A DNA stretch of 64,000 nt from an uncultured Acidimicrobiales bacterium (GTDB lineage Bacteria > Actinomycetota > Acidimicrobiia > Acidimicrobiales > DATKAS01), in assembly GCA_963739555.1 (NCBI GenBank), contig CAVUAV010000006.1, positions 222,760 to 286,759 of the forward strand, written 5' to 3'. Position 1 is the first letter of the stretch; each line of letters begins with the position of its first letter. The notes beneath the pieces are model-generated. The model was given only the letters and a program-made list of their open reading frames with translations. It searched no databases and was not told the DNA's origin. Shown here one piece after another: positions 1 to 64,000 of the stretch. Both the position numbers and the translations under genes were made by a program.

Positions 1-511
1 TCGTGGCCCGCACGTCCTTCGCCATCTCGGTCTCGGCGGGCCCGACGTTCTGGAAGTAGACGATGTAGAAGCTCTCGCCGAACACCGCTCGCATCAGGGG
101 CACAGGCGGCGCGGGGTAGTTCATGAGCGGCACGCTCACGCCGACGACCCCGCGGACGCGCTCCGGATGGAGCCTCGCGAGATCCCACACGATCAGGGCA
201 CCCCAGTCGTGACCGACGAACACCGCCTGCTCTTCACCGGCGTCGTCGACCAGGCCGAGGAGGTCGTGGTTGAGCTTCTCGATGCCGTAGTCGTCGACGT
301 TCGGAAGCTTCGTCGAGTCGCCGTAGCCGCGCAGGTCTGGGGCGATGACGTGATAGCCGGCCTCGGCGATCGGCACGATCTGGTGCCGCCACGAGTACCA
401 GCTCTCGGGGAAGCCGTGGCACAGCAGGACGAGCGGGCCCTCGCCCGCCTCCGCGACGTGCAGCTCGATGCCGTTCGTGGCCACCTGCCGGTGGCGGATC
501 TCGATCGTCAT
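1..511 (-). CDS. alpha/beta hydrolase, epoxide-hydrolase-like (3' end runs off the window)
   Basis: My own minus-strand translation from the ATG (complement of 509-511) gives MTIEIRHRQVATNGIELHVAEAGEGPLVLLCHGFPESWYSWRHQ...VFVGHDWGALIVW. It carries the HGFPE and GHDWG motifs. It is absent from the ORF track because the window edge truncates it. Confidence 0.8.
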   Translation of the reverse strand, partial: MTIEIRHRQVATNGIELHVAEAGEGPLVLLCHGFPESWYSWRHQIVPIAEAGYHVIAPDLRGYGDSTKLPNVDDYGIEKLNHDLLGLVDDAGEEQAVFVGHDWGALIVWDLARLHPERVRGVVGVSVPLMNYPAPPVPLMRAVFGESFYIVYFQNVGPAETEMAKDVRAT

Positions 512-524
512 GTCGTCGCGGCCG

Positions 525-1079
525 TCAGGCGACGGTCTCGTGGGCGATCGCGCCCTCGGACAGCGCGACGATCTCGCTCCAGGTCAGCGACGGCGAGCTC
601 CACAGCCTTTCGAAGGCGGCGTCGGCCACGTCAGTGAAGCCGTGACGGTTGCGGAAGTGGTAGAGCCACCGCTGCCGCTGCGCCGGGTAGCCGAACCGCT
701 CGAGCCGACCGTTGGAGTACACGGCCCACGCCACGCTCTGAGGCAACGTGAGGTCGCCATCGGAAGGCGCATCGGCGAAGCCGGGGGTGCGACGATCGGC
801 GACGCGCAAGAGCGCCCGGCCGATCACGTCGGCGGCTCCGGCTTCGGAGAGCTGCCGGGGACGCTTGGGGTCTTCGAGAGCGCCGCTCTCGGCCTCGATG
901 ACCACCGGATCTTGCGAGACGACTTGGGTGCGGCCCAAGGGGCTCGTCTCGTCGACGTTGATCTGCACGTCGAGATCGGGGACGCCGATGTCGTCGAGCA
1001 GCTTCTGGGTGATGGCTGCGATCTCTGCCGCGTCGAAGCCGACCATCGTGAACTTGTCGGGAGTGACGGTGACGGTCAT
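525..1079 (-). CDS. hypothetical protein (184 aa), third gene of the ferritin-like operon
   Basis: Intact ORF with high GC3. It overlaps the upstream gene by 4 nt and lies 13 nt from the downstream hydrolase. I recognise no motif. Confidence 0.6.
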   Translation of the reverse strand: MTVTVTPDKFTMVGFDAAEIAAITQKLLDDIGVPDLDVQINVDETSPLGRTQVVSQDPVVIEAESGALEDPKRPRQLSEAGAADVIGRALLRVADRRTPGFADAPSDGDLTLPQSVAWAVYSNGRLERFGYPAQRQRWLYHFRNRHGFTDVADAAFERLWSSPSLTWSEIVALSEGAIAHETVA

Positions 1080-3500: not shown

Positions 3501-5211
3501 TCAGCCGCGATATGCGTTCGTGATCGGCAGGCGACGGTCCTTGCCGAACGCCTTCGGCGTGACCCGCACGCCGGGAGGCGACTGCCGGCGCTTGTACTCG
3601 GCGAGATCGACGAGCCGAGTGACGCGCCGCACGATCGCTTCGTCGAAGCCCTCGGCGATGAGCTCAGCGGCAGTGAGGTCGCGTTCGATGTAGGCGGCGA
3701 GCACGGGGTCGAGGACCTCGTACGGCGGGAGGCTCTGGTCGTCGCGCTGGTCGGGGCGAAGCTCCGCCGACGGCGGCTTGGTCAGCACCTCGCTCGGGAT
3801 CACCGGCGCGGGGCCGATCGTGTTGCGGTGTTCGCACAGCCGGTAGAGGGTCGTCTTGAGCACGTCCTTGACGACGGCGAACCCACCGGCCGTGTCGCCG
3901 TAGAGCGTGGAGTACCCGACGGCCATCTCGCTCTTGTTGCCGGTCGTGAGCACGAGCCAGCCGAACTTGTTCGAGAGGGCCATGAGAACGACGCCGCGGA
4001 TCCGGCTCTGCAGGTTCTCCTCGGTGAGATCGGGAGGCAGGTCACCGAACGAAGGTGCGAGCATCTCGAGGAACGAGCCGTGCGCGGGCTCGATCGGGAT
4101 CGTCCGGAGGTCGATGCCGAGGTTCTCGGCCAGCGCCTGGGCATCGGTGCGTGAGCCGTCGCTCGAGTAGCGCGACGGCATCGAAACCCCGTGGACGTGC
4201 TCGGGCCCAAGCGCGTCGGCGGCGATGCACGCGACGATTGAGGAGTCGATGCCTCCGGACAGGGCGATGACGACGTCCGAGAACCCGTTCTTGTTCACGT
4301 AGTCGCGCGTGCCGAGGACGAGCGCCTCGTACACCTCCTCTTCGCGGTTCGGGAGCGGCGCGATGGTCGGCGACCGGAACTCAGCACCGTCGGTCTCGTT
4401 GCTCAACACGACCCGTGGCAGGGGATCGCCGTTGATCCACCCGCGGGGGTCGAGCTGGCGCTTGCGAAACACAGGCTCGACTTCGAGGTCGACGACGCTG
4501 ACCTCCTCGACGAACTGCGGTGCGCGAGCGATGAGCGCGCCGTCGGCGTCGAACACGAGCGACGCACCGTCGAACACGAGCTCGTCCTGGCCGCCGACCT
4601 GGTTCACGTACACGAGGGCGCACGACGCGTCGGCGGCGCGGGTCGCGAGCATCCGCTCACGCTCCGCGACGCGGCCCGCGTAGAACGGTGAGGCGTTCAG
4701 GTTCACCACGAGCTCGGCTCCCCCCGCGGCGTGCGCCGCGATGGGACCGGTCGGGCTCCACGCGTCTTCACAGATCGACACCCCGACGGACACTCCCGCG
4801 ATGACGTAGAGCTGCAACGGCTCTTCGCCGGGCACGAACGTGCGGCGCTCGTCGAACACCGCGTAGTTCGGAAGGAGTCGCTTGCGGTAGATGCCTTGGA
4901 CCTCGCCGTGCGCGCAGATCGCGGCGGCGTTGTGCAGGTCGCGGTCCTCGTCGACGAAGCCGACGACGACGACGCATCGGCCGGTGCGAGCAGCGATCTT
5001 GTCGAGGGCGGCCCGGTTGTCGGCCACGAAGCCGGGCTTGAGCACGAGATCCTCGGGCGGATAGCCGGTCACGGCCAGCTCGGGACAGACGAGCACGTCG
5101 GCCCCCGCCTGCTCGGCTTCTTCGAGCGCGATCGAGCACGCGGCTCACGTTGCCGTCGAGGTCGCCGACGACGGTGTTCAGCTGGGCCATTGCCACCCGA
5201 ATTCGGGCCAT
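3501..5211 (-). CDS. nadE: glutamine-dependent NAD+ synthetase, apparent frameshift near 5128-5140
   Basis: The main ORF has a CN-hydrolase half (VCPELAVTGYPPEDL, ICEDAW) and a synthetase half (LSGGIDSS). The first ~28 codons (MARIRVAMAQLNTVVGDLDGNVSRVL) are in another frame. Confidence 0.9.
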
Positions 5212-8910: not shown

Positions 8911-9608
8911 ATGATCAGGCGGATCGTCGCCTACGAGGATCACGACGCGCCGATGAGCCGCGTCGAGGTGCCCACGCTCGGCGTCGCGCTGATCCTCAGC
9001 TTCGGGCCGACGATGCGCGTCGACGGCCAGACGGTGTCGTCATTCCTCGTGGGGATGTGGGACAAACCTGCGCTCACCGAGCACGACGGCGACGCCCACG
9101 GAATCCAGATCGATCTCGCGCCGGCGGTCGCCTACGCGCTCGTCGGCGGGCGGATGGACGAGCTCACCAACCGCGTCATCGACGTCGGCGACCTCGAGGT
9201 GGTCAACGTCGATCGTCTGCTCGAGACGGGCGGCGCTGCCGCGGCTGACGAGCTGACGAACGGCGATGCAGACGTGGCCCGTCTGTCTCCCGCGAGGTCA
9301 ACTGGGCGTACACGCAGCTGCACCGACATCCCTCGACCCGCATCGCATGGCTGGCGGACGAGATCGGGTGGAGCCGCAGCCACCTCGTCGACCGCTTTCG
9401 ACGAGAAGTGGGACTCTCGCCCAAGCGCTTCGCACGGGTGGCCCGGTTCAGATCGGCGTTCGATCGACTCGCGACGGCGACCTCGCTCGCCACCGTCGCG
9501 GCCGAGTGCGGGTATGCCGACCAGTCGCACCTGACCCACGAGTTCCGGGAGATGGCCGGCGAGACGCCGAGCTCGTACCAGGCGACATTCGTACAAGACA
9601 GCGCGTGA
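8911..9608 (+). CDS. AraC-family transcriptional regulator, apparent frameshift at the CCC run near 9290
   Basis: The C-terminal HTH (IAWLADEIGWSRSHLVDRFRREVGLSPKRFARVARF...GYADQSHLTHEFREMAG) lies in a different frame from the N-terminal half. Confidence 0.7.
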
Positions 9609-11655: not shown

Positions 11656-12989
11656 ATGGAGCGCCAGCAGGACTATGTGCTGCGGACAGTCGAGGAGCGC
11701 GGTGTCCGGTTCATCTGGCTCTGGTTCACCGACGTCCTGGGTCAGCTCAAGTCGTTCGCCATCACGCCCGCCGAGCTCGAGAACGCCTTCGCCGAGGGAA
11801 TGACCTTCGACGGCTCGTCGATCGACGGGTTCTCCCGGGTGCAGGAGAGCGACGTGCTCGCCCGCCCGACCCCAACAGCTTCGAGCTGCTGCCCTGGGTC
11901 GACCCGACGGCGCCCGCCGCCCGGATGTTCTGCGACATCGCCAACCTCGACGGCTCGCCTTTCGAAGGCGACCCCCGTCAGGTGCTCAAGCGCAACCTCG
12001 ACCGGGCCCGTGAGCGGGGCTTCTCGTTCTACGTGTCGCCTGAGATGGAGTTCTTCTACTTCGAGGAGGGCGATCCCTCGAAGCCGCTGAAGATCCTCGA
12101 CAACGGCTCCTACTTCGACCTCACGACCGCCGACGTCGCCGGCGACCTGCGCAAGCGCACCGTCCAGACGCTCGAGACGATGGGCATCCCCGTCGAGTAC
12201 TCGTTCCACGAGGACAGCCCCAGCCAGCACGAGATCGACCTGCGCCACACCGACGCCCTGTCGATGGCCGACAACGTGATGACGTTCCGGCTCGTCGTGC
12301 GCGAGGCGGCCGCGTCACAGGGCGTCTACGCCACGTTCATGCCCAAGCCGCTCGAAGGCGTGCAGGGCTCGGGCATGCACACGCACATGTCGCTCTTCGA
12401 GGGCGACGAGAACGCGTTCTACGAAGGCGGCGACCCGCTCAAGCTCTCGAAGATCGCTCGTGCCTTCATCGCAGGGCTCCTCGTGCACGGACGCGAGATC
12501 ACGGCGATCACGAACCCGACGGTGAACTCCTACAAGCGGTTGATCCCCGGGTTCGAGGCGCCGGTGTACATCGCCTGGGCGCGGAACAACCGCACCGCGC
12601 TGGTGCGCATCCCGATCACGAAGTCCGGCAAAGCGGCGTCGACCCGCATCGAGTACCGCGCTCCCGACCCTGCCGCGAACCCATACCTCGCGTTCTCGGT
12701 GATGCTCGCCGCAGGCTTGAAGGGCATCGAACAGGGATACGAGCTTCCGAGTGAGGCCTCGTCGAACGTCTTCGAGCTCACCGACGAGGAACGTGCCGCC
12801 GAAGGCATCATCCAGCTGCCGCAGTCGCTCTCCGACGCGCTCGACGCGATGGCGAAGTCAGAGCTCGTCGCAGAAGCGTTGGGCGAGCACATCTTCGAGT
12901 GGTTCCTGCGCAACAAGCGCCAGGAGTGGATCGGCTACAAGACCCAGGTCACACAGTTCGAGCTCGACCGCTATCTCCGCAACCTGTAA
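11656..12989 (+). CDS. glnA2: glutamine synthetase GlnA2-type, apparent 1-nt deletion in the C-run at about 11866-11868
   Basis: The N-terminal ORF (FDGSSIDGFSRVQESDVLARP) and the C-terminal ORF (MFCDI...GSGMHTHMS...NSYKRL) join as LARPDPNSFELLPW if one C is restored. Confidence 0.9.
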
Positions 12990-13006: not shown

Positions 13007-13687
13007 ATGGAACCGCTGCTCCTGTTCCCGGATCCGCCGAACGAGGTGCTCACGCAGACCCTCGACCAGGCCGGCTACCCGTGGAAGGCCGCAGCGACCC
13101 TCGACATGGCGGCGCGCATCGAGCCTGAGGAGGGGTGGGCCGGCGCGGTGATCGATGCGACGCCCGACCCCGAGGCGGCGTTCGGCCTGTGCCGGGTGCT
13201 TCGCAAGCGTGACATCCCGCTCGAGCCGCTCCTCCTTCTGGTTCCCGCGCACCACATCGGCGATCTCGAGCTGCGCGAAGACCTCTTCGACGACTTCTGC
13301 GTCACGCCGTCGACCTCGGTCGAGCTCGAAGCGCGGCTGGAGCACCTCTTCTGGAGGAGTGGCGGAGGCACGCGTCCCGAGCTCATCGAGTACGGCGTGC
13401 TCGTGCTCAACCTCGAGACCTACCAGGCCGCGATCTCGGGCCGTCCACTCGACCTCACCTACATGGAGTACGAGCTCCTCAAGTACCTCGCATCGCATCC
13501 GGGCAAGGTGTTCACCCGCGAGACGCTGCTCTCGCGTGTGTGGGGTTACGAGTACTACGGCGGTGCCCGCACGGTCGACGTGCACATCCGGCGCCTCCGA
13601 GCCAAGCTCGGCGAGGAGCACGCAAACCTCATCCAGACCGTGCGCTCCGTGGGGTACCGGTTCGGCCAATCCCGCTGGGGGGTCTGA
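13007..13687 (+). CDS. glnR: GlnR-type orphan OmpR-family nitrogen regulator
   Basis: The ATG at 13007 follows GGAGGGG. The winged-helix region (GRPLDLTYMEYELLKYLASHPGKVFTRETLLSRVWGYEYYGGARTVDVHIRRLRAKLG) closely resembles mycobacterial GlnR as I recall it. The receiver domain is atypical. Confidence 0.85.
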   Translation: MEPLLLFPDPPNEVLTQTLDQAGYPWKAAATLDMAARIEPEEGWAGAVIDATPDPEAAFGLCRVLRKRDIPLEPLLLLVPAHHIGDLELREDLFDDFCVTPSTSVELEARLEHLFWRSGGGTRPELIEYGVLVLNLETYQAAISGRPLDLTYMEYELLKYLASHPGKVFTRETLLSRVWGYEYYGGARTVDVHIRRLRAKLGEEHANLIQTVRSVGYRFGQSRWGV

Positions 13688-13690
13688 CCC

Positions 13691-13720
13691 TCGGTCGGAA
13701 AGGAGACCTTTCCGACCGAA
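13691..13720. terminator. perfect 13-bp hairpin downstream of glnR
   Basis: TCGGTCGGAAAGG-agac-CCTTTCCGACCGA. Confidence 0.6.
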
Positions 13721-13724
13721 CTTG

Positions 13725-13744
13725 CGTCGGCTGGCGCCGACGCT
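13725..13744. terminator. second hairpin (8-bp stem)
   Basis: GCGTCGGC-tggc-GCCGACGC. Confidence 0.45.
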
Positions 13745-13814
13745 GAAACCCACACAGCGATCGACCGGCAGAGCCGGATCGATCGCGGTGATCGCAAGGG
13801 ATCGATAGCAGCGA

Positions 13815-15875
13815 CTACGGCGGCGGAGCCGGCAGTGGTCTTGGGCGCCAGCACCTTCCGGCGAGCAAGTCCTCGATCGTCGCCGAGGCGAAGGTGGCGT
13901 CGTCGGCCAGCACCTCGGTACTCGTCGGTGCCGTGAGCGACGTCCGTGTTGCCCTCAGGGTGGACCACGACGTAGCGACCCCACGTCCAACGTCCACTCT
14001 CGTGCTGGAGCATCGAGAGCAGCAGGAGGTGCTCGAGCCACATGACGACGGCCGGGACTTCCGTGCCCACGCCGCCGATGCACCCGAGCACCAACGCGAC
14101 GACCACACCCGGTGCACCAGGCACCCGACCGAGCAGGCCCCACGTGAGGACGGCGAACGACGCGGCCAGAAGGATGCCGAGGATGCCGGCACCGATGATG
14201 CTGCCGATGGCGCGCTTCTTGCGACGGGTCAGCGTCCGGTTCGTCGCCTCGAGCGTGAAGATCGCGTAGAGCGCGAGCAGGATCGCGCCGATCACTGGCG
14301 CAGTCAGCAGCGGTTGCTTCGTGCGGATGCGTGCCTGGGCGATCGGCTCGGCGTTCGACGGAGCGTCGGCCAACCGAAGCTCGAGGTCGGTCGGACCCGC
14401 TGCGACGAAGCGTGCGCCGCCGAAGTCGAAGCTCATCTGAGCGCCACCGGTGGGGCTGGCCTCGACCGCCGCGTCGGCGTTGAAGACCGAGCGACCGAGC
14501 AGCTTGAGCGTCGCCTTCATCTGGTTTCCGGCTGCGGGCGCCTCGGCCGCCGGGAGCTCGATCACGAGCGGCTTCTGCAGGTCGAGCTTCGGAGGCTCGG
14601 CCCCGTTCGCGAGCGGCACGCCGTCGATCGTCATCCCCTGGGGCGGCTGACCTGAGGGAAGCTCCTTCTCAGGCCACGCCACGAGCGCGAGGGCCGAGAG
14701 CACCGATCGCGACGAGCCCGATCAGGTACGGGACGAGGGGCTTCTTGCCCGCGACGACCCGGCCCGCATTGACGAACGCATCGGGCCGTGCGTCGGAGTC
14801 CAGCTCCGCGCCGTGCCGTCCTTCGCCGCTCGCGCTGCCGACGACGACGGTGGGCGTCGGGTTCGCTGCCGGCCCTGTCGCGTCCGGCGCGGGAAGTGCG
14901 CCCGGTACCGAGCGTCGCGCCGGCGGCCGTGCCCGGCGTCGCCATCGTCCCTCGTTGAGCCGCTGCGCCGAGAGGGTCGGTGCCGAACGTGAGCCGACCC
15001 GTCGTCGGGTTCAGCCATCCCGGCTTCCACGACGACGTCGCCGCCTCTGCGAGCGCCACGCCGAACTCTTCGGCGGTCTGGTAGCGGTCCTCAGGTCGCC
15101 GAGCGAGCGCCTTCATCACGACCGCCGCGAGGGGCGCCGGCAACGTCGGCGAGACCTGGTTGATCGGGATCGGGTCGTCGTACGCGTGGCGTTGCAGCGT
15201 CTCGACCGGGCCACCCTCGGCCGAATACGGGAGCTGGCCGGTGAGCAGCTCGTAGAGCAGCACGCCAGCGGCGAACACGTCGGTCGCGGGGCTGAGCGCT
15301 TGGCCGAGGGCTTGCTCGGGAGCCATGTACGCCGGGGTGCCGATCACCTCGCCCTGCTCGTTCGCGAGGGTCTGGTCGCCACCGACGACCGCGGCGATGC
15401 CGAAGTCAGTGACCTTCAGGGCACCCGCCGACGAGAACATCAGGTTCTCGGGCTTGATGTCGCGGTGCAGGATGCCGCGCGAGTGCGCAGCCTGCAGCGC
15501 GCTCGCGGTCGCCATGACGATGCCGCAGGCCTCTGCGTTCGTCAGGCCCGTCGTCGTGAACTTCGACCACACCGTGCCGCCGGTCAGCATCTCCATCACG
15601 AGCAGGCACAAGCCGTCCTGATCGACGAAGTCGAACACCGGGACGATGTGCGGGTGGTCGAGCGACGCAAGCAGCCGTGCCTCTTGCACGAACCGCACCT
15701 TGACCGTCGGGTCCTGGCCGAAGCCGAGCGGCAGCTGCTTGATCGCGACTGGTCGCCCGAGCTGGCGGTGCTCGCCGGCGATGACGACGCCCATCGCGCC
15801 GCGGCCGAGCTCGGAACCGATGTCGTAGGCAGGAAGGGCGTGCGCGACCCGTTGCAGGTCAGTGTCGGTCGTCAC
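13815..15875 (-). CDS. Ser/Thr protein kinase with a C-terminal extracytoplasmic domain and multi-TM region; at least 3 apparent frame changes (about 14900, 14700, 13920); 3' end uncertain
   Basis: Hanks motifs are present: GRGAMGVV, VAIK, HRDIKPEN, DFG, GTPAYMAPE. The linker, the TM segment (PLVPYLIGLVAIGAL...ALVAW) and the sensor region continue in shifted frames. The stop at 13815 keeps the hairpins at 13691-13744 intergenic. Confidence 0.75.
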
Positions 15876-16765: not shown

Positions 16766-18720
16766 TCAGCCCTTCTTCGAGGCGGCAAGCGGGTGGGCGA
16801 ACGCGATCACCGCGAGGATGGCCAGGAACAGGACGCCCATGCCCAACGAGCCGGCGGGCATGGAGCTCGTCGTGAGCACCACGTCGAAGTTCGTGTCGGT
16901 GGAGCCACCACAGTCAGCGTGCAACACCGACCGCCCGATGTCGAGCACGGGAAGGTTGACGTTCGCTTCGAACGTGCCGTCGGCCCTCGCCGTCGTCTCG
17001 CCGACCACCGTGCCGTCGATGCTGAACTCGACCTTGGAGTTCGGCGTGCAGCCTTCACCGGTCACGCCGAGCACGCCGCCCGGAGTCGCGGACGGGTTGA
17101 TGGTCTTGAGCACGACCTCAGGAGGCGGCGGCGTCGCCCGCGGCGTGGGCTTGGGCACGATCGACGCCGGCGGCGGGGGCGGCTCGGACGGCGGCGGGAG
17201 CTCAGGTGGGATGAACGTGCGCACGACGACCGTCGCCAGGACCGTGGGCGAGGGCGGAGGAGGGGGCGGCAGAGTCGGAGCCGGCGGCGGCTCCTCGCGA
17301 GCCGGCGGCAGCGTGCGTCGTGGTCGTCGTCGATGTCGTCGTGGTGGACGTGTCGTCCGTCGGCTGCGCCTGGATGAAAGGCGTCGGCTGCTGCGGCGGC
17401 GGCGGGCACTTGACCCCCACCGACGCGCTGGCGATGTTGTTGTCGGGGTTGGGGTCCTGCGTGTCGGCAGTCACCGCGGCGTCTTCGTTCGTGATCGTGC
17501 CGCACGTTGTCGTGGCGCTCGACGTCACCGTGACCGAGAACGTGCCGTCGGAGTCGAGGCTGCCGATGTCGCATCGGAGCGTCTGCGCGCTGCTGCCCTC
17601 GCCGGTCTCGAGCGAGCAGGGCGACGCGGCGTCGCTGACATCCTCGGGAGCGTTGGCGATCGTCCACGTCACGCCGGTGGGGAGCGCGTCGGTGAGCGCG
17701 ACGCTGCTCGCCGAGTCGGGACCGAGGTTCGTCACGGTCAGATCGAACGACACCGGGCTGCCCTGAGCGACCGAGTTCGGGTTCGCGGCCTTCGTCAGCT
17801 CGAGGTCGGCGCGCTCGGTGCGCATTCGTGACCTCGATCGTGGTCGGGTCGACCTTGTTCTCGACGATGCTCGGAGTCGTGAAGGCGAGCGTCGGACCGC
17901 TTTCGCTGCCCTCGCTGGCGGATGCGCTCTCGCCGTTGACGGCGAAGGTGACGTCGTCGGCGCCTCCCGTGTTCGTCTCGATGAGGTGGCAGTCAGTGCC
18001 GTAGGGCAGCCAGAGGTTCGTGCTGCCGTCCGCGCCCAGGTCGAAGGTCTTGTCGTAGGTCGTTGACTCGCCGTCACCACAGGTGACCTCGAACGAGAAC
18101 TGGCTCTCGCCGTCGAACGTGCCCTGCACGGTCTTCGTGATCGTGACCGGGGCGCCCACGTTGTAGGCCACGCACACCAGCGGATCATCCGGCGTGATGC
18201 CGAGGAACTCGAGGTTGTCGTCGTTTCTGTTGTCGGTGCCGCACCGAAGGGTGCCGAAGGCGAAGCCGTCCTGCGCGACCTCGCTGACTTTCAGGCCGCC
18301 CCTCGGCGAGCAGTGCGACCTGCTCGGGGGTCAGCGCCACCGTGCCGGTGACCGAGGGAAGCGATTGATCGACCATGTTCCCCGTGCCGTGCGGGTCGCG
18401 ACCGACATCGGCGTCGGAGCCGAGCACGAATGGCCAGTCCGCGATCCGCTCACAGCCGGCAGCGGTCTCGTTCGGGTCGACCCGCTCCACTTCGATCGGC
18501 GGTCCGAGCGTCGTGCCTTCGGGCCGCGCGCTGAGGCCGTTGGGCTCGTCTGTGTTCGCGGGGATCGCGCCGAAGTCCGCGCACATGATCTTGACGAACG
18601 TGATCTGTGGCGATTCGCCGCCGCTTCGCTCTGTGCTCCCGCCTGAGTCCACGTGATCGGCGCGCACACCGCCAACGCGAGGATTCCTGCGAGCACGATG
18701 ATTCGTCGTGCCGCCCGCAT
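16766..18720 (-). CDS. secreted DUF11-repeat surface protein with a Pro/Thr-rich stalk and C-terminal TM anchor; at least 4 apparent frame changes (about 18615, 18300, 17820, 17230-17330)
   Basis: It starts with the signal peptide MRAARRIIVLAGILALAVCAP. The DUF11-like core is ADLELTKAANPNSVAQGSPVSFDLTVTNLGPDSASSVALTDALPTGVTW. The C-terminus is GMGVLFLAILAVIAFAHPLAASKKG. The pieces lie in four track ORFs. Confidence 0.65.
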
Positions 18721-19873: not shown

Positions 19874-21219
19874 CTAGAGCGAGTCGAGCACGAGCGCCAC
19901 GTCGTCGAACGTGGTGCGCGGGTTCACGAAGCAGAAGCGCAAGCAGGTCTCGCCGCGCCACGTCGTCGGCACCGTGAACGTGAGTCCGCTCTCCAAGACG
20001 TGATCAGACCAAGCCGCGTAGTCCGCGGCCGTCCACCCCACGCGCCGGAAGAGCACGATCGACAGCTCGGGCTCCTCGATCAGCTCCACCGCGGGATGCG
20101 CGTCGATCATCCGTGCCACGTCGCGCGTGAACGTGAGCGTGGCTTCGATCGCGGCGGCGTACGCATCGGTGCCGTGCGTCGCGAGCGAGAACCAGAACGG
20201 CAGGCCTCGCGCCCGGCGCGTGAGGTGGAACGCGTAGTCCGACGGGTTCCAGTCGGGGGTCGTGTGCAACACGTCGAGGTACGCGGCGTGCTGTGTGTGC
20301 GCGGCCCGAGCCGGCTCAGGGTCTCGGTACACGAGCGCCGCGCAGTCGAACGGTGCGAAGAGCCACTTGTGCGGATCGACGGAGAACGAGTCCGCGCGCT
20401 CCACTCCTGCGAACAAGTGCCGTGCGCTCTCCGCCACGAGCGCCGCCAAGCCGTAGGCGCCGTCGACATGGAGCCACAAGCCGCGCTGCGCGGCGACGTC
20501 GGCGATCCCTCCGAGGTCGTCGACGAACCCGCCGTTCGTCGTGCCGCGGTGGCGACCACGGCAAAGACGTCGTCGGCGTCGTCGGCTTCGTGGAGCGCGC
20601 GTTCGAGCGCTGCACCAGTGAGACGTCCCTTCTCGTCGGTCGGGACGACGACCATCAGCGCGTCCATCACGCGGGCGGATGCTGCGACCGACGAATGCGC
20701 GGCATCGCTCACCGCCACCGCGGATCGTCCGTGCTCGCCGCGCCTGCTTCGCCAGACATCTCTCGCGACCACGAGCGCGCTCAGGTTGGCCGCGGTGCCG
20801 CCGGCGACGAACACTCCGCCCGCACCGGGTGGGAAGCCGGCGAGGTCGGCGAGCCAACGCAGGGCCTCGTTCTCGGCGAACACCGCGCCCGCACCTTCGA
20901 GCCATGACCCGCCGTAGATCGACGACGCGCCCACGACGAGGTCGAACAGGATCGCGGCGTCGGTCGGCGCCGCGGGAACGAACACGAAGAACCGCGGATG
21001 GTCGACCGAGATCGTTGCGGGAGCGAGCGCGTCGGCGAACACTCGGAGCGCTTCCTTGCCGCCGATCCCGGCGGGCGTGATCGTGCGACCGGCGGCCGCG
21101 GCGAGCTCGCTCGGCGTGCGGCTGCGATCGAGCGGGGGAGGATCCATCCGCACACGCTCGAGCGCGTAGTCGAGGATCGCGCGGGCGAGCGTCTCGGCCG
21201 ACTCGTCGAACCGGTGCAT
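19874..21219 (-). CDS. group II PLP-dependent decarboxylase, apparent 1-nt deletion in a G-run near 20545
   Basis: The two ORFs join as FAVVATAGTTNGGFVDD. The PLP-lysine motif is SVDPHKWL. Confidence 0.85.
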
Positions 21220-24539: not shown

Positions 24540-24549
24540 AGTGAAAATC

Positions 24550-39232: not shown

Positions 39233-39234
39233 CG

Positions 39235-40335: not shown

Positions 40336-41074
40336 ATGTCACGCCCCCGATTGACATCCGTTCTCCTCGCCACGGCGATCGCCGTTGCCGCACTCGGTGG
40401 TGCTGCCGGGGTTGCCTGGGCGCAAGACACGACGGCGACCACGACGGCGACGACCGCTCCGACGACCGCGGCAACCACCGCCCCGACGACTGCGGCCGCG
40501 ACGACAAAAGCGCCGACGACGACGCAGGCGGCGACGACGGCGGCGCCTGCGACGACCGCAGCAGCCACCACCGCCGCGCCCGCCACGACCGCCGCCGCGG
40601 CGACGAGCCCGAACGACAGCGACAACTGGCTGCTGATCCTGATCGGGATCGTGATCGTCCTCGGCATCGTCGCGTTCTTCGTCGGGCGCTCGCGCTCGCT
40701 GAAGGCGAAGCAGGTGTGGAAGCAGCAAGCCACGGCGCTCCTCGACGAGCTGTCCGACGTCGGCATCAACCTCGCCGCGGCGCAGCCCTCGGCGATCCCG
40801 GTGATCGCGGCACGCACCGAGGGGCGGCTCGTGCAGCTGAACGCGCAGCTGTCGACGATCCACCAGCGCGGGCCATCAGCAGTCGAGCGCAACGCGCTCG
40901 GTGCCCGTGATCAACGCGTCGAGCACGCTCCACGCGACGCTCACCCAGATCACGCTGGCGCCTCCTGGCACGCAGGCGCCCGCCGCGGCGAACATCTCGA
41001 ACGACGCAGCGATGCTCGACAGCACCGCCCGCTCCGCGAAGCTCAGCTTGTTGGGGGTCGGCACCACCACATGA
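40336..41074 (+). CDS. secreted Thr/Ala-rich single-TM protein, apparent frameshift near 40868
   Basis: It has a signal peptide, a T/A low-complexity stalk and the TM segment WLLILIGIVIVLGIVAFFV. The high-GC3 continuation (...SSATRSVPVINASSTLHATLTQITLAPPG...) is in another frame and ends in an ATGA overlap. Confidence 0.55.
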
Positions 41075-41649
41075 CGAAGGTGTGGCGGGCGTGGGGCCCC
41101 GCAATGGTGTGTGCAGCGCTGGCGGTGTCGGTCGTCTCCGCGTGCGGTGGCGACTCGCCGGCTGCGGCGTCTGCGGATCCGCAAGACCTGCAGAAGAAGA
41201 TGCAGATCGTGCAGCAGCAATTCCAGGCCGAGCAGCAGGTGCTCGACAAGAACCAGGACTCGATCCTGAACATCGTGAGCGGTGGTGGGACCCAAGCGCC
41301 GGCGGACTTCTTCGACTTCCTCCGCGATCCGGGGATCCTGTTGACAGAGATCGGCGACGCTACCGAGGCGACTTCTCCCGACGACCTGCTCGTGGCCTGG
41401 CAGGCGCATGCCGATGCGTGGTGCGCGCTCGGATCCAGCGACTTCGACGACGCCTTCTTCAAGGTCTACGGCGGCGCGCATGTCTTGCCCGCGCTGGTGG
41501 TGTTCCTCGACTCGTCCTGCGGAAGCGAGGCTGCCGCGGCTCTCGTCGCCGCAGCGGACGCAGACGGACTCGGCGAGGGCATGGCATCGTCCGGCAACCC
41601 GGCTGCGGGCATCGATCTGGACGAGCTGCTCACGCGCCTCAGCGGCTAG
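41071..41649 (+). CDS. lipoprotein, unknown function
   Basis: MTKVWRAWGPAMVCAALAVSVVSACGGD. Confidence 0.6.
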   Translation: MTKVWRAWGPAMVCAALAVSVVSACGGDSPAAASADPQDLQKKMQIVQQQFQAEQQVLDKNQDSILNIVSGGGTQAPADFFDFLRDPGILLTEIGDATEATSPDDLLVAWQAHADAWCALGSSDFDDAFFKVYGGAHVLPALVVFLDSSCGSEAAAALVAAADADGLGEGMASSGNPAAGIDLDELLTRLSG

Positions 41650-44444: not shown

Positions 44445-45219
44445 ATGACGGCTCGCACCTCGCAGGAACGCTTGGATGGCACCGTCGCGCTCGGTGACGG
44501 GCGCGTCGAGCGGCATCGGTGCGGCCTCCGCAACAGCCCTGGCCGCTGAAGGCGCGGCGGTCGCGCTCGCTGCGCGTCGAAGAGATCGGCTCGACGCAGT
44601 TGCGGCCGACATCCGTGACGCAGGCGGCACCGCGTTGGTGCTCGAGTGCGATGTCACCGACGAAGCGCAGGCCGCGGACGCCGTCGCGCGCACTGTGGCG
44701 GAGCTCGGCCGGCTCGACACGTTGATCAACAACGCCGGCGTCATGCTCCTCGGCCCTGTGGTCGGCGCTCCGATCTCGGAGTGGCAGCAGATGGTGGAGC
44801 TGAACATCCTGGGCCTGCTCTACAGCGCCCACGCTGCGCTTCCGCATCTGCTGCAGGCGGCAGAGCAAGGCCCTCGACGCGTGGCCGACATCGTCAACAT
44901 CAGCTCGGTGGCGGGCCGCCACGCCCGCAACGGCAACGGCGTGTACAGCTTGACCAAGCATGGCGTCGGTGCGTTCAGCGAGTCGTTGCGCCAAGAGGTG
45001 ACGAAGCGCTACGTGCGCGTCTCGCTGGTCGAGCCGGGCGCCACCGCGACGGAGCTTGCGAGCCACAACCGTCCGGAGATCCTCGCGGGCATCGGCGCCC
45101 AGATCGCCCAGACCATGGACGCCGATGACATCGCGGACACGATCACGTTCATCGTCACGAGGCCGCGACACGTCACGATCAACGAGGTCCTCATCCGCCC
45201 GACGGAGCAGGAGCGCTAG
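44445..45219 (+). CDS. short-chain dehydrogenase/reductase, apparent 1-nt insertion near 44493
   Basis: The ATG follows AGGAAGG. MTARTSQERLDGTVAL joins to VTGASSGIG. The active-site motifs are NNAG and YSLTK. Confidence 0.85.
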
Positions 45220-46091: not shown

Positions 46092-46641
46092 ATGCGGCCC
46101 CTTCGGTACTCCATCAACGTCACGTTGGACGGGTGCTGCGACCATCGGGCAATCCCCGCGGACGAAGACTTGCATCGTCACGCGGCCGAGAGCATCAGCC
46201 AGGCCGATGCCCTTCTCTTCGGCCGGGTGACGTACGAGATGATGGAGTCAGCGTGGCGGCCAGGCGGCGACTGGAGCCAGACCTGAGTGGATGGAACCCT
46301 TCGCCCAGACGATCAACGTGGCAAAGAAGTACGTCGTGTCGAGCACCCTGGAGCAAGTCGATTGGAACGTGGAGCTCGTCCGCGGAGATCTGGGCGAGGC
46401 GGTTCGGCAGCTCAAGCAGGAGTCGGGCGACGGACTGTTCGTGGGAGGGGTGACGCTCCCACTCGCGTTGACGGAGCTGGGCTTGATCGATGACTACGAG
46501 TTCGTGGTGCATCCCAGGCTCGCGGGCCACGGCCCGACGCTGTTCGCGGGGCTGTCGAAGCATGTCGACTTGAAGCTCGTGAGCCGGCTCGAGTTCGGCT
46601 CGGGGGCAGCGGCGATGCGGTACGAGCCGAGTGCGCATTGA
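46092..46641 (+). CDS. RibD-C/dihydrofolate-reductase-like protein, apparent frameshift near 46265-46285
   Basis: MRPLRYSINVTLDGCCDH...FGRVTYEMMESAW joins to PEWMEPFAQTINVAKKYVVSSTL. Confidence 0.75.
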
Positions 46642-46913: not shown

Positions 46914-47586
46914 GTGTGCTTCTCGGCCGAAGCGGATGTCGTCGCCGGTCTCGTGGTGGGCGCAATCGGCATCGACGCGCTTGCGCCACGTCCGTCGACG
47001 AGCCGAGCTTCCCCTGGCAGCAATACCGGTGGTGCTTGCCGCTCATCAGCTGATCGAGGCGGTGATCTGGTGGGGCCTCGACGACCAGGTGCCGAGCGCC
47101 GTCTGGCGCACTGCGCTTTGGGTGTATCTCGCGATCGCCTTCGGAGTCCTGCCCGTCCTCGTTCCCGTGGCAGTGGGTGCCCTCGAGCCGCTCGCCAATC
47201 GGCGTCGTGTTGCTGTCTTCACGGCGATCGGCGTGACAGTGGCAGTCGTGTTGATGTACGCAGTCATTCGTGGCCCGATCACCGCGACCATCGAAGGGCA
47301 CCACATCGCATACAGCGTCGATCTTTGGCACGGTGGCTTGATCGTGTTCCTCTACGCCGTTGCGACCTGCGGCTCGATGCTCGTGTCGAAGCACCAGCAC
47401 GTGCGGTGGTTCGGCATGATCAACTTCGTCGCCGTTGGCTTCCTCGCCGCGTTGAACAAGAGCGGCTTGATCTCCCTCTGGTGTGCGTGGGCCGCGGTCA
47501 CCAGCGTCGCCATCGCAGTGCATCTTCGCCGCGGCCACCGGACACCGAGCCAGCTCCCGGCGGTCCCTGATGGCGTGTCCAGCTGA
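46914..47586 (+). CDS. multi-TM membrane protein (DUF6629-like by recollection), apparent 1-nt insertion near 46978
   Basis: A GTG start gives MCFSAEADVVAGLVVGAIGIDAL, which joins to RHVRRRAELPLAAIPVVLAAHQLIEAVIWW. Confidence 0.55.
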
Positions 47587-48284: not shown

Positions 48285-48450
48285 GGCGGGAACGGTGGGG
48301 CTCGCCGGGCGACGGCACGTCCCGCGCCGGCGAGCGTTGGATGCGGTGGAGGGCAGACCCGCATGGGTCACAGCGACGTGAGGCGCACGCTGGCCGTATA
48401 CGCGCAAGCGACCGACGATCGCGACCGAGCTGCCGCGGACGCGCGGCGCG
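48285..48450 (+). pseudogene. tyrosine-recombinase C-terminal remnant
   Basis: MGHSDVRRTLAVYAQATDDRDRAAADA matches the LGHS....T...Y motif that holds the catalytic Tyr. Nothing like the rest of an integrase lies upstream. Confidence 0.45.
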
Positions 48451-48613
48451 TTCTACGGGCCACGGTCGATCGCTGTCAGCTGATCCTCTGTCGCGCTGAG
48501 GACCCACGAATCCCGAGATCCATTCGGAGAGACACCCGCGGCGTCAGGTCTGCTGGTGTAGGAGACCGCGAGCATTCGCCAACGGCTCCGTGAACCAGGC
48601 CGCCTTCCGTGGG

Positions 48614-51770: not shown

Positions 51771-54050
<2,280 letters not shown>

Positions 54051-55765: not shown

Positions 55766-55784
55766 GGTAGTGGGACGCCGGTGC

Positions 55785-56546: not shown

Positions 56547-56649
56547 GGCTTCGACGGTATCGACGCGACCTGACTTCCCGGTCGACGCGGTGTGAACGCC
56601 CGGTGACGTCGTCTGGAAGCGTGTTCCTACCCGCCGGTAACATCGCGGG

Positions 56650-57505
56650 GTGACCGTGAAGCGGGTTGGGATCGTCGGGTCGGGGATCATGGGCGTGGGC
56701 ATCGCCGAAGTCGCCGCCAAGGCCGGGTTCGAGGTGATCCTGCGGTCGCGCCACGAAGCGAGCGCGGAGGGCATGGTCGCCGCACTCGAGAAGGCGTTGG
56801 CCAAGCAGGTCGAGCGGGGCAAGCTCGAAGAGGCCGAGCGCGCTGCGGTGATCTCGCGGGTGACGGCGACGACCGTGCTCAGCGACCTCTCGGACTGCGA
56901 TCTCGTGATCGAGTCGATCGTCGAGGACCTCGTCGTGAAGAAGCAGCTCTTCCGCGAGCTCGACCATTACTGCCGGGCCGACGCGATCCTCGCGACCAAC
57001 ACGTCGACCCTTCCGGTCGTCGAGATGGCAGTCGAGACCGGTCGTCCCGAGCGCGTGTGCGGCATCCACTTCTTCAACCCTGCGCCGGCGATGAGCCTCG
57101 TCGAGGTCGTGCGCCCGTTGCTTGCGAGCGAAGAGACGATCGCGGCAGCACGCGAGTTCGCCGACGCGTGCGGGAAGGACGCGGTCGTCGTCGAGGATCG
57201 AGCCGGGTTCGTCGTCAACGCGCTGCTGTTTCCCTACCTCAACAACGCAGTGCGCATGCTCGAGGCCGGAACCGCCTCCCGCGAAGACATCGACGCCGCG
57301 ATGAAGGGCGGCTGCAACTTCCCGATGGGCCCGTTCGCTCTGCTCGACCTCGTGGGACTCGACACCTCGGTCGCGATCCTGGATGCGCTCTACGACGAGT
57401 TCCGCGACCCGAACTACGCGCGCCGTGCCGCTGCTGCGCCGCATGGTCAGCGCCGGCCGCCTCGGTCGCAAGTCCGGCTTCGGCTTCTACGACTACCGCA
57501 AGTAA
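56650..57505 (+). CDS. hbd: 3-hydroxybutyryl-CoA dehydrogenase, apparent frameshift near 57418-57430
   Basis: VGIVGSGIMGVGIA...ATNTSTL...HFFNPAP. The natural C-terminus PLLRRMVSAGRLGRKSGFGFYDYRK* is in the +1 frame. Confidence 0.85.
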
Positions 57506-57518
57506 CGCACGAGGGTCG

Positions 57519-58191
57519 GTGGCCGCACGGCCGGTCGAGCCTCCGCCGACCTCATGGCGCTTCCCGCCCGTCGACGCCGCCGATGAGGACGGCCTCGTCG
57601 GCGTGGGCGCCGACCTCGAGCCCGGCACCTTGCTCGCCGCGTACCGCACGGGCCTCTTCCCGATGCCGGCCGGACGCGACGGGCCGATGGGGTGGTGGTC
57701 GCCTGATCCACGCGGCGTCCTGCCGTTGGACGAGCTGCGCGTGTCGCGGTCGCTGCGCCGTTCGACGCATCGGTACGAGGTTCGGGTCGACACGAGGTTC
57801 GAAGCGGTGATGCGCGGCGTGCGGCGATCCCCGCCGTGCCGGAGGCTGGATCACCGAGCCGATGGTCGCGGCGTACGTCCGCATGCACGACCTCGGCTGG
57901 GTTCACAGCGTCGAGACGTGGAGCGCCGACGGGGAGCTGGTCGGTGGCCTCTACGGCATCGCGATCGGTGGTTTCTTCGCCGGCGAGTCGATGTTCAGTC
58001 GCGCGGTCGACGCGTCGAAGGTCGCGCTCGTCGACCTGGTCGAACGGCTGCGTGCTGCGGGCTACCGGCTGCTCGACGTGCAGTGGGCGACGCCGCATTT
58101 GCGCACGCTCGGTGTCATCGAGATCCCACGACCGCGCTACGTGGTCGCGCTCGAAGAGGCGCGTGAGATGGAGGTCGCCGACGCATGGTGA
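57519..58191 (+). CDS. aat: leucyl/phenylalanyl-tRNA-protein transferase, apparent 1-nt insertion near 57818-57820
   Basis: [12 protein letters not shown]...[11 protein letters not shown] joins to [19 protein letters not shown]...[18 protein letters not shown]. Confidence 0.85.
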
Positions 58192-58219
58192 GACGAGACC
58201 AGTGAGCGAGAATGGAGGC

Positions 58220-60190: not shown

Positions 60191-60220
60191 TTCGAGTCAG
60201 CACGCGCCGATGGACCTCCG

Positions 60221-61087: not shown

Positions 61088-61117
61088 ACCCTCCGTTCCC
61101 TGCGTCCGTATCCCGAC

Positions 61118-61714: not shown

Positions 61715-61717
61715 TCC

Positions 61718-62845
61718 CTACCAGCCGTTCGATCTGATCTCGTCCCCGTCGGCATCGAGAGGACGCCCGGCCCATCTGATGTGGCCGGGCGTCTTCGCGA
61801 GATGCGCGATCAGGCCTTGCATCGGCACGCCGTCGACCTCGACGATCGCATCGCGTGACACGTAGTGGGGATCGGCGTCGATGTCACCCATCGTCATCAC
61901 CGGCGCGATCGCCGCCTCGGCTCGTTGGAACTCGGCGAGCACCGCAGCGGAAGGTCGTGCGGCGATCCAGTCGCGCACGACGCGGTCGACCTCGTCTCGA
62001 TGCTCGACTCTCCCCGCGAACGTTGCGAACCGAGGGTCATCGCCGAGGCCTACGAGCGCCATCACGCGTGACGCGACCGACTCGGCCGACGTCGACAGCG
62101 CGACCCACTTGCCGTCGGCGCACTGGTAGGTGCCTCGAGGCACGGAGTAGGGGATGCCGGAGCCCATGCGAGGTTGCTCGTAGCCGAGCAATCGGTGCGC
62201 GCCGATGAGCGGCCCCATGAGCTGGAAGAGCGACTCGAGCAGGTTCACGTCGACGACCTGGCCGACGCCCGAGTGCACTCCGACGAGCGTGGCGAAGGCG
62301 GCGACGAGCCCGGTGACCTCGTCGGTCAGCGCGATCGGCGGGAGCAAGGGCCCACCGTCGGGCTCGCCGTTGATCGCCGCGAAGCCGCTCATCGCCTCGG
62401 CGATCGTGGCGAACCCCGGGCGTGTCGCGTAGGGGCCGTCTTGACCGAAGCCGGTGATGCGAGTGATCACGAGCCTCGGGTTGCGTGCCAGAAGCACGTC
62501 AGGCCCGAGGCCGAGACGCTCGAGCGTGCCGGGCCGGAAGTTCTCGATGAGCACGTCGGCCTCGTCGCAGAGCCGGTGCATCAGCTCGAGGTCGTTGGGT
62601 GACTTCAGATCGAGAGCGATGGTGCGCTTGCCGCGTCCGCCGAGCTTCCACCAGAGGGTGACGCCGTCGCGTGGGTCGCGCCAACCCATGTTGCGCAGCG
62701 TGTCGCCGCCGTCAGGACGCTCGACCTTGATCACGTCGGCGCCGAAGTCGGCGAGGTAGCGGGCGCACGCGGGGCCGGCCACGACGGACGACGCATCGAT
62801 GACCTTCAGGTCCGCGAGCGGCCCCGCGGTCGGCTCGTCGCTCAC
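61718..62845 (-). CDS. family III CoA-transferase (CaiB/BaiF)
   Basis: LKVIDASSVVAGPACARYLADFGADVIKVE. The 375-aa ORF is intact. Confidence 0.85.
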   Translation of the reverse strand: MSDEPTAGPLADLKVIDASSVVAGPACARYLADFGADVIKVERPDGGDTLRNMGWRDPRDGVTLWWKLGGRGKRTIALDLKSPNDLELMHRLCDEADVLIENFRPGTLERLGLGPDVLLARNPRLVITRITGFGQDGPYATRPGFATIAEAMSGFAAINGEPDGGPLLPPIALTDEVTGLVAAFATLVGVHSGVGQVVDVNLLESLFQLMGPLIGAHRLLGYEQPRMGSGIPYSVPRGTYQCADGKWVALSTSAESVASRVMALVGLGDDPRFATFAGRVEHRDEVDRVVRDWIAARPSAAVLAEFQRAEAAIAPVMTMGDIDADPHYVSRDAIVEVDGVPMQGLIAHLAKTPGHIRWAGRPLDADGDEIRSNGW

Positions 62846-63447
62846 CCGAAGACGTTGAAGCCGTCGGGCAGCCCGGCTCGCCCGCCGAGCGACCGGATCA
62901 ACACGAGCGGGTCGGCGACCTTCGCCATGATCTCCGTCGTCACCGCGACCGCGTCACCGCGAACGGTCGGCGGAAAGTCGAGCGCGTCGGTGATGTCGAG
63001 TGTGTGGACGGTCAGCTCGACGATCCGCGTCGGCAGGTAGTCGATGAGGCGCATGCCGCCGAAGCGAGAGCTGCAGACTGCGTCGTCGGGCTCGCTCGCG
63101 ACACGATCGACAACCCGCTGCGCGAGGGGACGGATCGCGCCGACCGGATCATCCCCGAGCGCGGCACCTGCTTGACGGCCACGCTCCGCCACGTCGTCGT
63201 GCAGCGCTGGCGTCGCCATCTGCAGTCCGCGCGTGTAGTACTCGAGCGGCGACTGGATCGTGATCTCGAGCTTCGGTGCGTCGAGATACTGCTCGACCGT
63301 GACCACGGCGCGGCTTGCGTGGCCGACCAGCTCCTGCAGAGTCCACACTCCGAGGCCTGGCGCCGACCACGCGTCGTCCGGAACGGCCAGCACCGCGTCG
63401 ACGAATCCGGCCGTGGCCTCGTTGAACGCGTGTCGGATGTCGGTCAT
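62842..63447 (-). CDS. DinB/MDMPI-N family (mycothiol-dependent-isomerase-like) protein
   Basis: The start is at MTDIRHAF. WSAPGLGVWTLQELVGHASRAV follows. An ATGA overlap couples it to the upstream gene. Confidence 0.7.
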   Translation of the reverse strand: MTDIRHAFNEATAGFVDAVLAVPDDAWSAPGLGVWTLQELVGHASRAVVTVEQYLDAPKLEITIQSPLEYYTRGLQMATPALHDDVAERGRQAGAALGDDPVGAIRPLAQRVVDRVASEPDDAVCSSRFGGMRLIDYLPTRIVELTVHTLDITDALDFPPTVRGDAVAVTTEIMAKVADPLVLIRSLGGRAGLPDGFNVFG

Positions 63448-64000
63448 GCGAGCCCGTCCATCGTGAAGCATCGATCGTCGAGCGTGCCGAACGCGTACTG
63501 CTCGTAGAAGCCGGCGAACATCGCGCGTGTCTTGTTCGTCCACTCGAGGGCCTCGGGCGTCGAGATCCGCCGGTGCACTTGGATGACCCCGCCCTCGAAC
63601 ACGCGGTACTCCGCCCACGTGCCGGGAAAGTCCTTCACGCACGCGACCTCGACGTAGGGGATCGCGCCGGTCGCGCTCGAAGTGGCGTACGCGGTTGCGA
63701 TGGGTGTGGCCGGCGAAGTACCCGAGGATCGATGGTCGGCGCGCGATCACGTCGACCAGGCCCTCGGAGTCGTCGGGGTTGAGCCCGAAGTAGGTGAGGC
63801 TGCGCTTCGCAGAGTCGGGGCTCCACGGGTGGTGATGACCCATCACCATGATTGCGCGATCGCTCTCGGCGCTCATCGTGTCGACCCACGCGAGCTGGTC
63901 CTTCGTGATCCGCCCCGTCGTCTCGAACGGGATGACGGTGTCGAGCACCAGCACGCGCACGCCGGGCAGCACGACCTCACGGTCCCCCGCCTCGTAGGTC
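63444..64000 (-). CDS. metallophosphoesterase (5' end off the window), apparent frameshift near 63690
   Basis: MVMGHHHP and FAGHTHRN are present. It continues as TGAIPYVEVACVKDFPGTWAEYRV in another frame. Confidence 0.7.

Follow-up and report, generated by a model that had tools for sequence, protein, structure and literature searches.

The window, a 64,000-nucleotide stretch of a 625,126-bp contig from an uncultured Acidimicrobiales genome deposited at ENA/NCBI, carries about 72 genes, and approximately 27 of these are interrupted by indels of 1–2 nt that break the reading frame: some 36 sites in all, as found by Viterbi segmentation, Pfam alignment and comparison with sister orthologues (Table 1). 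The first-pass annotation had already called frame-broken genes at or near most of these positions, and they are real, with Viterbi, Pfam and the orthologues of 91–94%-identical sister genomes in agreement; its count of about 35 broken genes was too high. Functions that are normally essential are affected (asd, nadE, mrp and glnA2), as are selA and selB, while several long genes (glnE, MM-CoA mutase, glnA1) are unbroken despite their length. The distribution of the sites is roughly Poisson (chi-square p = 0.09 in 4-kb bins), with some local clustering: four pairs of sites lie less than 50 nt apart (P = 0.014).

The breaks can be seen in three ways. An independent six-frame codon-usage Viterbi segmentation puts frame switches on the same strand exactly at, or close to, nearly all of the coordinates given in the first-pass annotation. 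When the frames are joined, single Pfam alignments span the junctions in nadE, glnA2, the decarboxylase, mrp, NUDIX, fxsA, selA, arsA2, MIP, asd and hbd, and the Pfam domains of SDR, RibD_C, DUF6629 and aat are likewise continuous in the frame-joined translations. Finally, in tblastn, the intact proteins of close relatives (90–98% amino acid identity) match two or three abutting window segments in differing frames in at least 20 genes, so that the comparison of junctions with orthologues that had been proposed finds intact orthologues bridging the breaks.

Several of the original positions were equivalent in frame but misplaced (selB, AraC, nadE). The nadE site, read as a 2-nt change in a CGCG repeat, is a single inserted base in the relative alignment; the AraC-family regulator has two insertions in place of one deletion at 9290; and the selB edit belongs at 32784, not in the GGGGG at 32747. 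In asd the lesion is an inserted A preceding the GGG and not an edit of that homopolymer at 51991, while the ~13920 site ascribed to the kinase sits in a PDDEXK_13 remnant. The remnant was left by a deletion of ~790 bp (at 14057–14064, supported by two relatives) that abuts it and truncates both the kinase and the PDDEXK_13 genes.

Table 1. Frame-breaking sites in the window, with the affected gene, position, strand and the evidence for each.
Gene and change	Position	Strand	Evidence
nadE: 1-nt insertion (extra A)	5131..5131	-	Viterbi, Pfam, relatives
AraC-family regulator: two 1-nt insertions, 9262 (G) and 9271 (G)	9262..9271	+	3/3 relatives
glnA2: 1-nt deletion, GG>G	11862..11866	+	Pfam, relatives
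PDDEXK_13 remnant: indels at 13859 (-1), 13915 (-2), 14046 (-1)	13800..14060	-	Pfam, relatives
Ser/Thr kinase: 1-nt insertion (C)	14704..14704	-	relatives
Ser/Thr kinase: 1-nt insertion (C)	14909..14909	-	relatives
DUF11/CLIPPER surface protein: 2-nt deletion, GTC-type repeat	17316..17317	-	relatives
DUF11 protein: 1-nt insertion (G)	17818..17818	-	relatives
DUF11 protein: 1-nt insertion, ambiguous placement	18295..18303	-	Viterbi, relatives
PLP decarboxylase: 1-nt deletion, CC>C	20548..20548	-	Pfam, relatives
HTH_20 regulator: two 1-nt insertions, 24943 (C) and 24970 (C)	24943..24970	-	Pfam, relatives
mrp/ApbC: 1-nt insertion (C)	25896..25896	+	Pfam, relatives
NUDIX hydrolase: 1-nt insertion (A)	29313..29313	-	Pfam, relatives
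fxsA: 1-nt insertion (C)	29910..29910	-	Pfam, relatives
selA: 1-nt insertion (G)	30676..30676	+	Pfam, relatives
selB: 1-nt insertion, TT>TTT	32784..32786	+	relatives; missing in short-read JGI contigs L082, L083
nfeD: 1-nt insertion (G)	34794..34794	-	relatives; missing in short-read JGI contig L089
arsA-like 2: 2-nt insertion (GC in GCGCGC)	37036..37039	+	Pfam, relatives
arsR: 1-nt insertion (A), at or just past 3' end; uncertain effect on gene	38449..38449	-	relatives
Three insertions: 39173 (+2, end of glyoxalase-like gene); 39215 (+1) and 39250 (+1), both 5' part of MIP	39173..39250	+	relatives
MIP channel: 1-nt insertion (C)	39577..39577	+	Pfam, relatives
MIP channel: 1-nt deletion, GG>G	39761..39763	+	relatives
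Hypothetical gene: 1-nt insertion (G)	40900..40900	+	Viterbi, relatives
SDR: 1-nt insertion directly 5' of VTGASSGIG motif	44493..44493	+	frame-joined Pfam; no covering relative
RibD_C-like gene: +1 frame shift	46270..46280	+	frame-joined Pfam
DUF6629 gene: +1 frame shift	46970..46985	+	frame-joined Pfam
asd: 1-nt insertion (A)	51990..51990	-	Pfam, relatives
hbd: 1-nt insertion (G)	57422..57422	+	Pfam, relatives
aat (Leu/Phe-tRNA protein transferase): 1-nt insertion (G)	57812..57812	+	Pfam, relatives
Metallophosphoesterase (CpdA/Icc-like): one extra base directly after GHTHRNRV motif	63685..63700	-	relatives, homologues

At about 30 sites the window indel is missing from every covering relative, also where two or more relatives span the site and in long-read and short-read assemblies alike, the exception being the site at ~63690 discussed below; the short-read contigs of relatives (L082, L083, L089, L096) have intact frames. 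At the DUF11 position ~18615 and at the arsR site the relatives are mutually inconsistent or bear errors of their own. The comparison took in five sibling assemblies whose contigs are named in Flye style (ERZ25039488, ERZ25039520, ERZ25039542, ERZ25039556 and ERZ25039575; hereafter A488, A520, A542, A556 and A575). Private coding indels of 1–2 nt number 17 in 30.8 kb for the window, 18 in 30.8 kb for A556, 21 in 20.9 kb for A520, 99 in 27.9 kb for A542, 2 in 14.8 kb for A488 and 11 in 1.9 kb for A575, and about 78% of them are insertions. Over the five siblings the rate of private coding indels that are not multiples of three spans 0.14 to 5.9 per kb, at positions that differ per assembly. Because each sibling has its own private set at its own rate, the rate follows the assembly and not the phylogeny. 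The evolutionary indels within coding sequence in the relative alignments are all multiples of three (21, 3, 6, 24, 12 and 12 nt). More distant GTDB relatives (≤82% amino acid identity), too remote for base-level placement, were used only for nadE, glnA2 and the decarboxylase, which are single-frame there.

Purifying selection acts normally on both flanks of the breaks: measured against four relatives, dN/dS is 0.07–0.11 downstream of the breaks, 0.08–0.13 upstream and 0.08–0.13 in intact genes. A screen of the coding frames, run with no codon-score filter, gave zero window-private stop codons against the ~36 frameshifts. With private indels, equal dN/dS, no nonsense and intact short-read frames, there is strong support for the earlier attribution to assembly or polishing error over pseudogenes: very probably the indels are errors in the consensus of a long-read metagenome assembly, at ~0.6 per kb and chiefly spurious 1-nt insertions, the genes being intact and functional in the organism.

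The kind of error differs from what had been proposed, namely miscounts in C/G homopolymers and slippage in CGCG repeats. About 80% of the events in the window are single-base insertions, mostly outside homopolymers. The run lengths at 23 aligned 1-nt insertions are 1 (11 sites), 2 (11 sites) and 3 (one site), and a random-insertion model gives ~49–50% at length 1, 34% at length 2 and 16% at length 3 or more; the contexts thus match random expectation, with no homopolymer enrichment (one of 23 in a run of at least 3). The few 1-nt deletions each only shorten a 2-base run. This spectrum of non-homopolymer insertions departs from the textbook Nanopore pattern of homopolymer deletions. GCGC occurs within 8 nt on either side of 12 of 30 sites against a background of 18.5% (p = 0.005, uncorrected). 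The idea of a methylation motif close to the sites, either GCGC or GATC, was tested and set aside, as no 4-mer stands out beyond general CG-richness.

The metallophosphoesterase site at ~63690 is the odd one out. Its extra base is common to the window and a long-read relative, L091 (~94% identical), and is found neither in the short-read contig L096 nor in hundreds of homologues. Random error alone would rarely give a frameshift common to two assemblies. Downstream of the site, the substitutions between the two carriers are about nine synonymous to one non-synonymous, so the region is still translated in the downstream frame, and this speaks against a real ancestral frameshift. The shared shift looks like a recurrent error, which predicts reads favouring GAGGCGACC. 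That it is instead real, inherited and decoded by ribosomal frameshifting or, more broadly, that this lineage tolerates many +1 insertions in vivo, strikes us as highly improbable.

Could the genes truly be broken? A very recent mass pseudogenisation, for instance in a mismatch-repair-deficient or host-restricted lineage accumulating +1 insertions, would leave about 37% of the genes disrupted, and the frameshifts do physically exist in the deposited sequence. The 790-bp deletion nearby is probably a real structural lesion, and a putative tRNA-Pro-linked island (44387/51170) with degraded coding potential is also present. Against this stand dN/dS values past the breaks that are indistinguishable from those of intact genes, where decay would relax them, the absence of nonsense mutations among coding frames, the breakage of indispensable genes that decay should spare, and the intact short-read contigs of close relatives. 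Moreover, the five sister assemblies would each need an independent, similar wave, at rates 40-fold apart. We regard such decay as very unlikely. Recoding, in which programmed or pervasive ribosomal frameshifting keeps the shifted genes expressed, would explain why purifying selection persists in both frames around the sites and why the downstream frame is conserved at the metallophosphoesterase shift common to two genomes. The sites share no motif, however: among 256 4-mers tested none survives correction (best uncorrected p 0.006). In-frame stops do not follow closely, the old frame mostly staying open for 50–1200 nt; shifts run in both directions, +1 and -1; and the sites are not conserved in the 91–94%-identical genomes, the orthologues being single-frame everywhere, distant homologues included. 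We give recoding almost no credence.

A mixture, in which most sites are consensus errors and a minority are real mutations, is a tentative possibility that we consider somewhat doubtful. The candidates are the indels of the PDDEXK_13 remnant, the 1-nt intergenic differences at 34180–34227 and 12990–13751, and possibly ~63690. The remnant adjoins the deletion that two relatives support, and the intergenic cluster at 34180–34227 differs from all relatives, short-read contigs included, and is of deletion type, unlike the coding errors; the indels in the remnant and in intergenic DNA may be genuine mutations. For ~63690, the sharing with L091 speaks for a real event and the synonymous excess downstream against it.

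For the consensus errors themselves, the source would be long-read consensus calling (probably Nanopore/Flye/Medaka) at modest coverage or with strain heterogeneity, a platform that we infer from the Flye-style contig names of the relatives in ENA analyses and from PMC12313526. Related genomes in GTDB are Nanopore MAGs from Microflora Danica, a project that gave its Nanopore-only assemblies a single round of Medaka polishing and checked low-coverage MAGs for Nanopore-associated errors (PMC12313526). R10.4 assemblies are near-finished only at ~40x coverage (PMC9262707), and long-read indel-induced frameshifts have been described (PMC9262707; PMC12007338). The contig would retain single-base errors, most of them spurious 1-nt insertions; each one would shift the reading frame and lead ORF finders to call truncated, split or falsely fused genes, while the underlying genes would be unbroken and working in the living organism.

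One outcome is false fusions. ORF 24219..25214, flagged as such in the first-pass annotation, contains HTH_20 and Fe-S_biosyn domains and joins the HTH_20 regulator to an iscA-like gene as a result of the two insertions in the regulator; the insertion at 40900 likewise creates ORF 40336..41649 from two genes whose counterparts in relatives are 141 and 181 aa long. On the contig, about one gene call in three is cut short, split or falsely fused (these two and 13555..14703 among them), and the sibling MAGs are probably affected by the same faults. Left uncorrected, the frames would lead to wrong functional or pseudogene inferences for the genome, with pathway completeness for selenocysteine, lysine and NAD synthesis at risk, together with “novel fusion” proteins. 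Homopolymer-aware correction would miss non-homopolymer insertions, a possible residual error class in such assemblies. The frame breaks are a quality-control flag and not biology, and their value is practical only.

Reductive-evolution pseudogenes, as in Mycobacterium leprae and recent host-restricted pathogens, leave a large fraction of genes frame-disrupted, and genes in true decay also gain nonsense mutations and larger deletions, their dN/dS relaxes and their codon bias is lost. The window is alike in its many frame-disrupted genes but is without nonsense mutations, relaxed dN/dS or codon-bias loss. Programmed ribosomal frameshifting is known in prfB, dnaX and IS elements, and pervasive +1 shifting in Euplotes; as there, the coding signal resumes in a new frame past the site, but the window sites run in both directions and are without a conserved slippery or stop motif or conservation in close relatives. 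Classical accounts of long-read errors stress homopolymer miscounts, mostly deletions, whereas here ~80% are insertions in contexts no more homopolymeric than random. The nearest likeness is to long-read-only (Nanopore/PacBio) assemblies and MAGs as seen in the IDEEL test: they too have 1-base consensus indels that fragment genes, at an assembly-dependent rate and with clean short-read relatives.

The frame breaks in the window are real features of the sequence, because a coding model changes frame at them and Pfam domains align across them. A codon log-odds table was trained on the long high-GC3 ORFs of the window itself, and a Viterbi path was computed over seven states (the six frames and a non-coding state), allowing no stops and charging a penalty for each frame switch. 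Its same-strand frame changes lie far from any stop of the old frame, and their positions essentially reproduce the break coordinates of the first-pass annotation (table). Joined translations spanning the junctions each give a single unbroken Pfam alignment: CN_hydrolase (nadE), Gln-synt_N (glnA2), Pyridoxal_deC, ParA/NUBPL (mrp), NUDIX, FxsA, SelA, ArsA_ATPase, MIP, Semialdhyde_dhC (asd), 3HCDH (hbd) and, with three frames inspected, adh_short, RibD_C, DUF6629 and Leu_Phe_trans.

The window has a G+C content of 68%. Compared with proteins from uncultured Acidimicrobiales MAGs, several of which are Nanopore MAGs from Microflora Danica, its glnA2 product reaches no more than 82% identity. Of ten window proteins tested, eight have exact copies in the public protein collection, in each case on one 625,126-bp contig listed under NCBI and ENA. 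Through cluster members of intact window proteins we reached syntenic 20-kb loci in five sibling assemblies (ERZ25039488, ERZ25039520, ERZ25039542, ERZ25039556 and ERZ25039575; contigs all named "contig_N") at 91–94% DNA identity to the window, and further recovered an outgroup at 80% identity as well as several contigs assembled from short reads (JGI, SPAdes, MEGAHIT). Combined, the close relatives cover window positions 1–44386 and 51171–64000. The comparison of junctions with orthologues, proposed at first pass, bore out the breaks: intact proteins of the relatives (90–98% amino acid identity) align as two or three directly adjoining pieces that differ in frame, in nadE, AraC, glnA2, the kinase, DUF11, the decarboxylase, the HTH regulator, mrp, NUDIX, fxsA, selA, selB, nfeD, arsA2, a hypothetical gene, asd, hbd and aat.

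Pairwise alignment with the relatives placed the lesions to the base, predominantly as 1-nt insertions. At every site covered by two to four relatives, the window's indel is missing from each of them. In all there are about 36 sites, which affect about 27 of roughly 72 genes; the earlier figure of about 35 genes was somewhat inflated. The predicted false fusion of an HTH_20 regulator with an IscA-like protein was confirmed, and a second ORF joins two genes that are separate in relatives (141 and 181 aa).

Lesions and neighbouring features of the window
Feature	Position	Strand	Remark
Viterbi frame switches	5131, 9284, 11862, 13917, 14703, 14893, 17246, 17824, 18300, 20543, 24957, 25906, 29315, 29908, 30676, 32740, 34825, 37059, 39578, 39759, 40899, 51988, 57420, 63702		
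1-nt insertions	5131, 9262, 9271, 14704, 14909, 17818, about 18299, 24943, 24970, 25896, 29313, 29910, 30676, 32784, 34794, 38449, 39215, 39250, 39577, 40900, 51990, 57422, 57812		
2-nt insertions	37036, 39173		
1-nt deletions	11862, 20548, 39761		
2-nt deletions	13915, 17316		
Sites in ~6.8-kb segment	44493, about 46275, about 46978		inferred from frames
Metallophosphoesterase extra base	~63685–63700 (about 63690)		L091: ~13466–13481
HTH_20/IscA-like fusion ORF	24219..25214		
Two-gene ORF	40336..41649		
Chimeric ORF	13555..14703		
PDDEXK_13/REase remnant	~13800–14060		
~790-bp gap	14057–14064		
selA-selB operon	30119–33143		conserved in relatives
Intergenic deletion cluster	34180–34227		hydrolase start to whiB stop
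~6.8-kb segment	44387–51170		
Poor coding potential	48260–49838, 50332–51398		in segment
Integrase-like C-terminal fragment	48363..48593		in segment
tRNA-Pro(CGG)	51172–51249	(-)	segment stops exactly at gene

That these breaks are an assembly artefact, as first diagnosed, is strongly supported by the agreement of six independent tests: privacy, short-read contigs, dN/dS, nonsense codons, evolutionary indels and distribution. Every sibling assembly has private coding 1–2-nt indels at positions of its own (78% insertions), at 0.14 per kb in ERZ25039488, about 0.55–0.6 in the window and ERZ25039556, 1.0 in ERZ25039520, 3.5 in ERZ25039542 and 5.9 in ERZ25039575; the rate belongs to the assembly, not the lineage. 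In selB, nfeD and the metallophosphoesterase, the insertions seen in the window are absent from short-read contigs of relatives, which otherwise differ only by 3n or compensated indels. Nei-Gojobori dN/dS between the window and four relatives (dS about 0.2–0.3) is 0.07–0.11 downstream of the break, 0.08–0.13 upstream and 0.08–0.13 in unbroken genes. Window stop codons that read as sense in a relative all sit in non-coding frames or intergenic DNA, none in a coding frame, and the frame-keeping coding indels that vary among relatives are multiples of three (21, 3, 6, 24, 12 and 12 nt). Finally, the sites are scattered in roughly Poisson fashion when counted in 4-kb bins (p = 0.09), cluster to some extent at very short range, and strike asd, nadE, mrp, glnA2 and selA/selB among others; about 37% of genes are hit, versus about 38% expected for 800-nt genes at 0.6 events/kb.

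The CpdA/Icc-like metallophosphoesterase is the one exception: the long-read relative L091, about 94% identical, carries the identical extra base, directly after the GHTHRNRV motif. Hundreds of homologues have no break there, the gene is continuous in the short-read MEGAHIT contig L096 (product 97% identical), and substitutions between the two carriers downstream run at about 9 synonymous to 1 non-synonymous, so the downstream frame is still translated. From these alignments, a recurrent context-dependent consensus error is a candidate that fits better than an inherited lesion.

The proposed homopolymer sub-mechanism does not hold. The aligned 1-nt insertions make no run in 11/23 cases, a 2-base run in 11/23 and a 3-base run in 1/23, where random insertion predicts 49.5%, 34.4% and 16% for run lengths 1, 2 and ≥3. 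Each of the three 1-nt deletions removes one base from a GG or CC pair, and a 4-mer scan at the sites found a mild CG-rich bias only and no motif. The edits first suggested (CCC/CCCC at 11866, 9290 and 39767, GGGGG at 32747, GGG at 51991, CGCG at 5130) do restore frame, but orthologues put the lesions elsewhere.

The ~6.8-kb segment, missing from the close relatives L092 and L093 (where an alpha/beta hydrolase is followed by MazG and asd within ~1.5 kb), contains SDR, BaxI_1, RibD_C, DUF6629, a PIN-domain ORF and an ECF sigma factor, and looks like a tRNA-linked genomic island. A stretch of ~790 bp present in both L090 and L094 is missing from the window, and with it go the final ~35 codons of the Ser/Thr kinase and, from the downstream PDDEXK_13/REase gene, about 230 codons, so that a remnant is left. 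This gap is a real deletion or else a collapse in the assembly, and it plays a part in the chimeric ORF. In the intergenic DNA between the hydrolase start and the whiB stop, four single bases and 3 nt are missing versus every relative, short-read included, a deletion cluster in contrast to the insertion-type errors of coding DNA, which could be real intergenic divergence or locally poor consensus. ARAGORN and Rfam detected no tRNA-Sec (selC) in the whole 64 kb.

Private single-base indels occur in all sibling long-read assemblies (L085–L095), with a 40-fold range of rates and an insertion bias (for instance a split selB in L088, truncated asd and aspartokinase in L092, and a split glnE in L095), and the problem therefore spans the whole data set, not the window alone. 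The frame breaks hold no biological novelty, and the worth of the finding is an annotation warning. The platform behind the window and the ERZ assemblies was probably Nanopore. Fragmentation of gene calls by Nanopore consensus indels is well documented, about 40x coverage being needed before R10.4 assemblies become near-finished (PMC9262707), and low-coverage MAGs of Microflora Danica have been examined for Nanopore-associated errors (PMC12313526).
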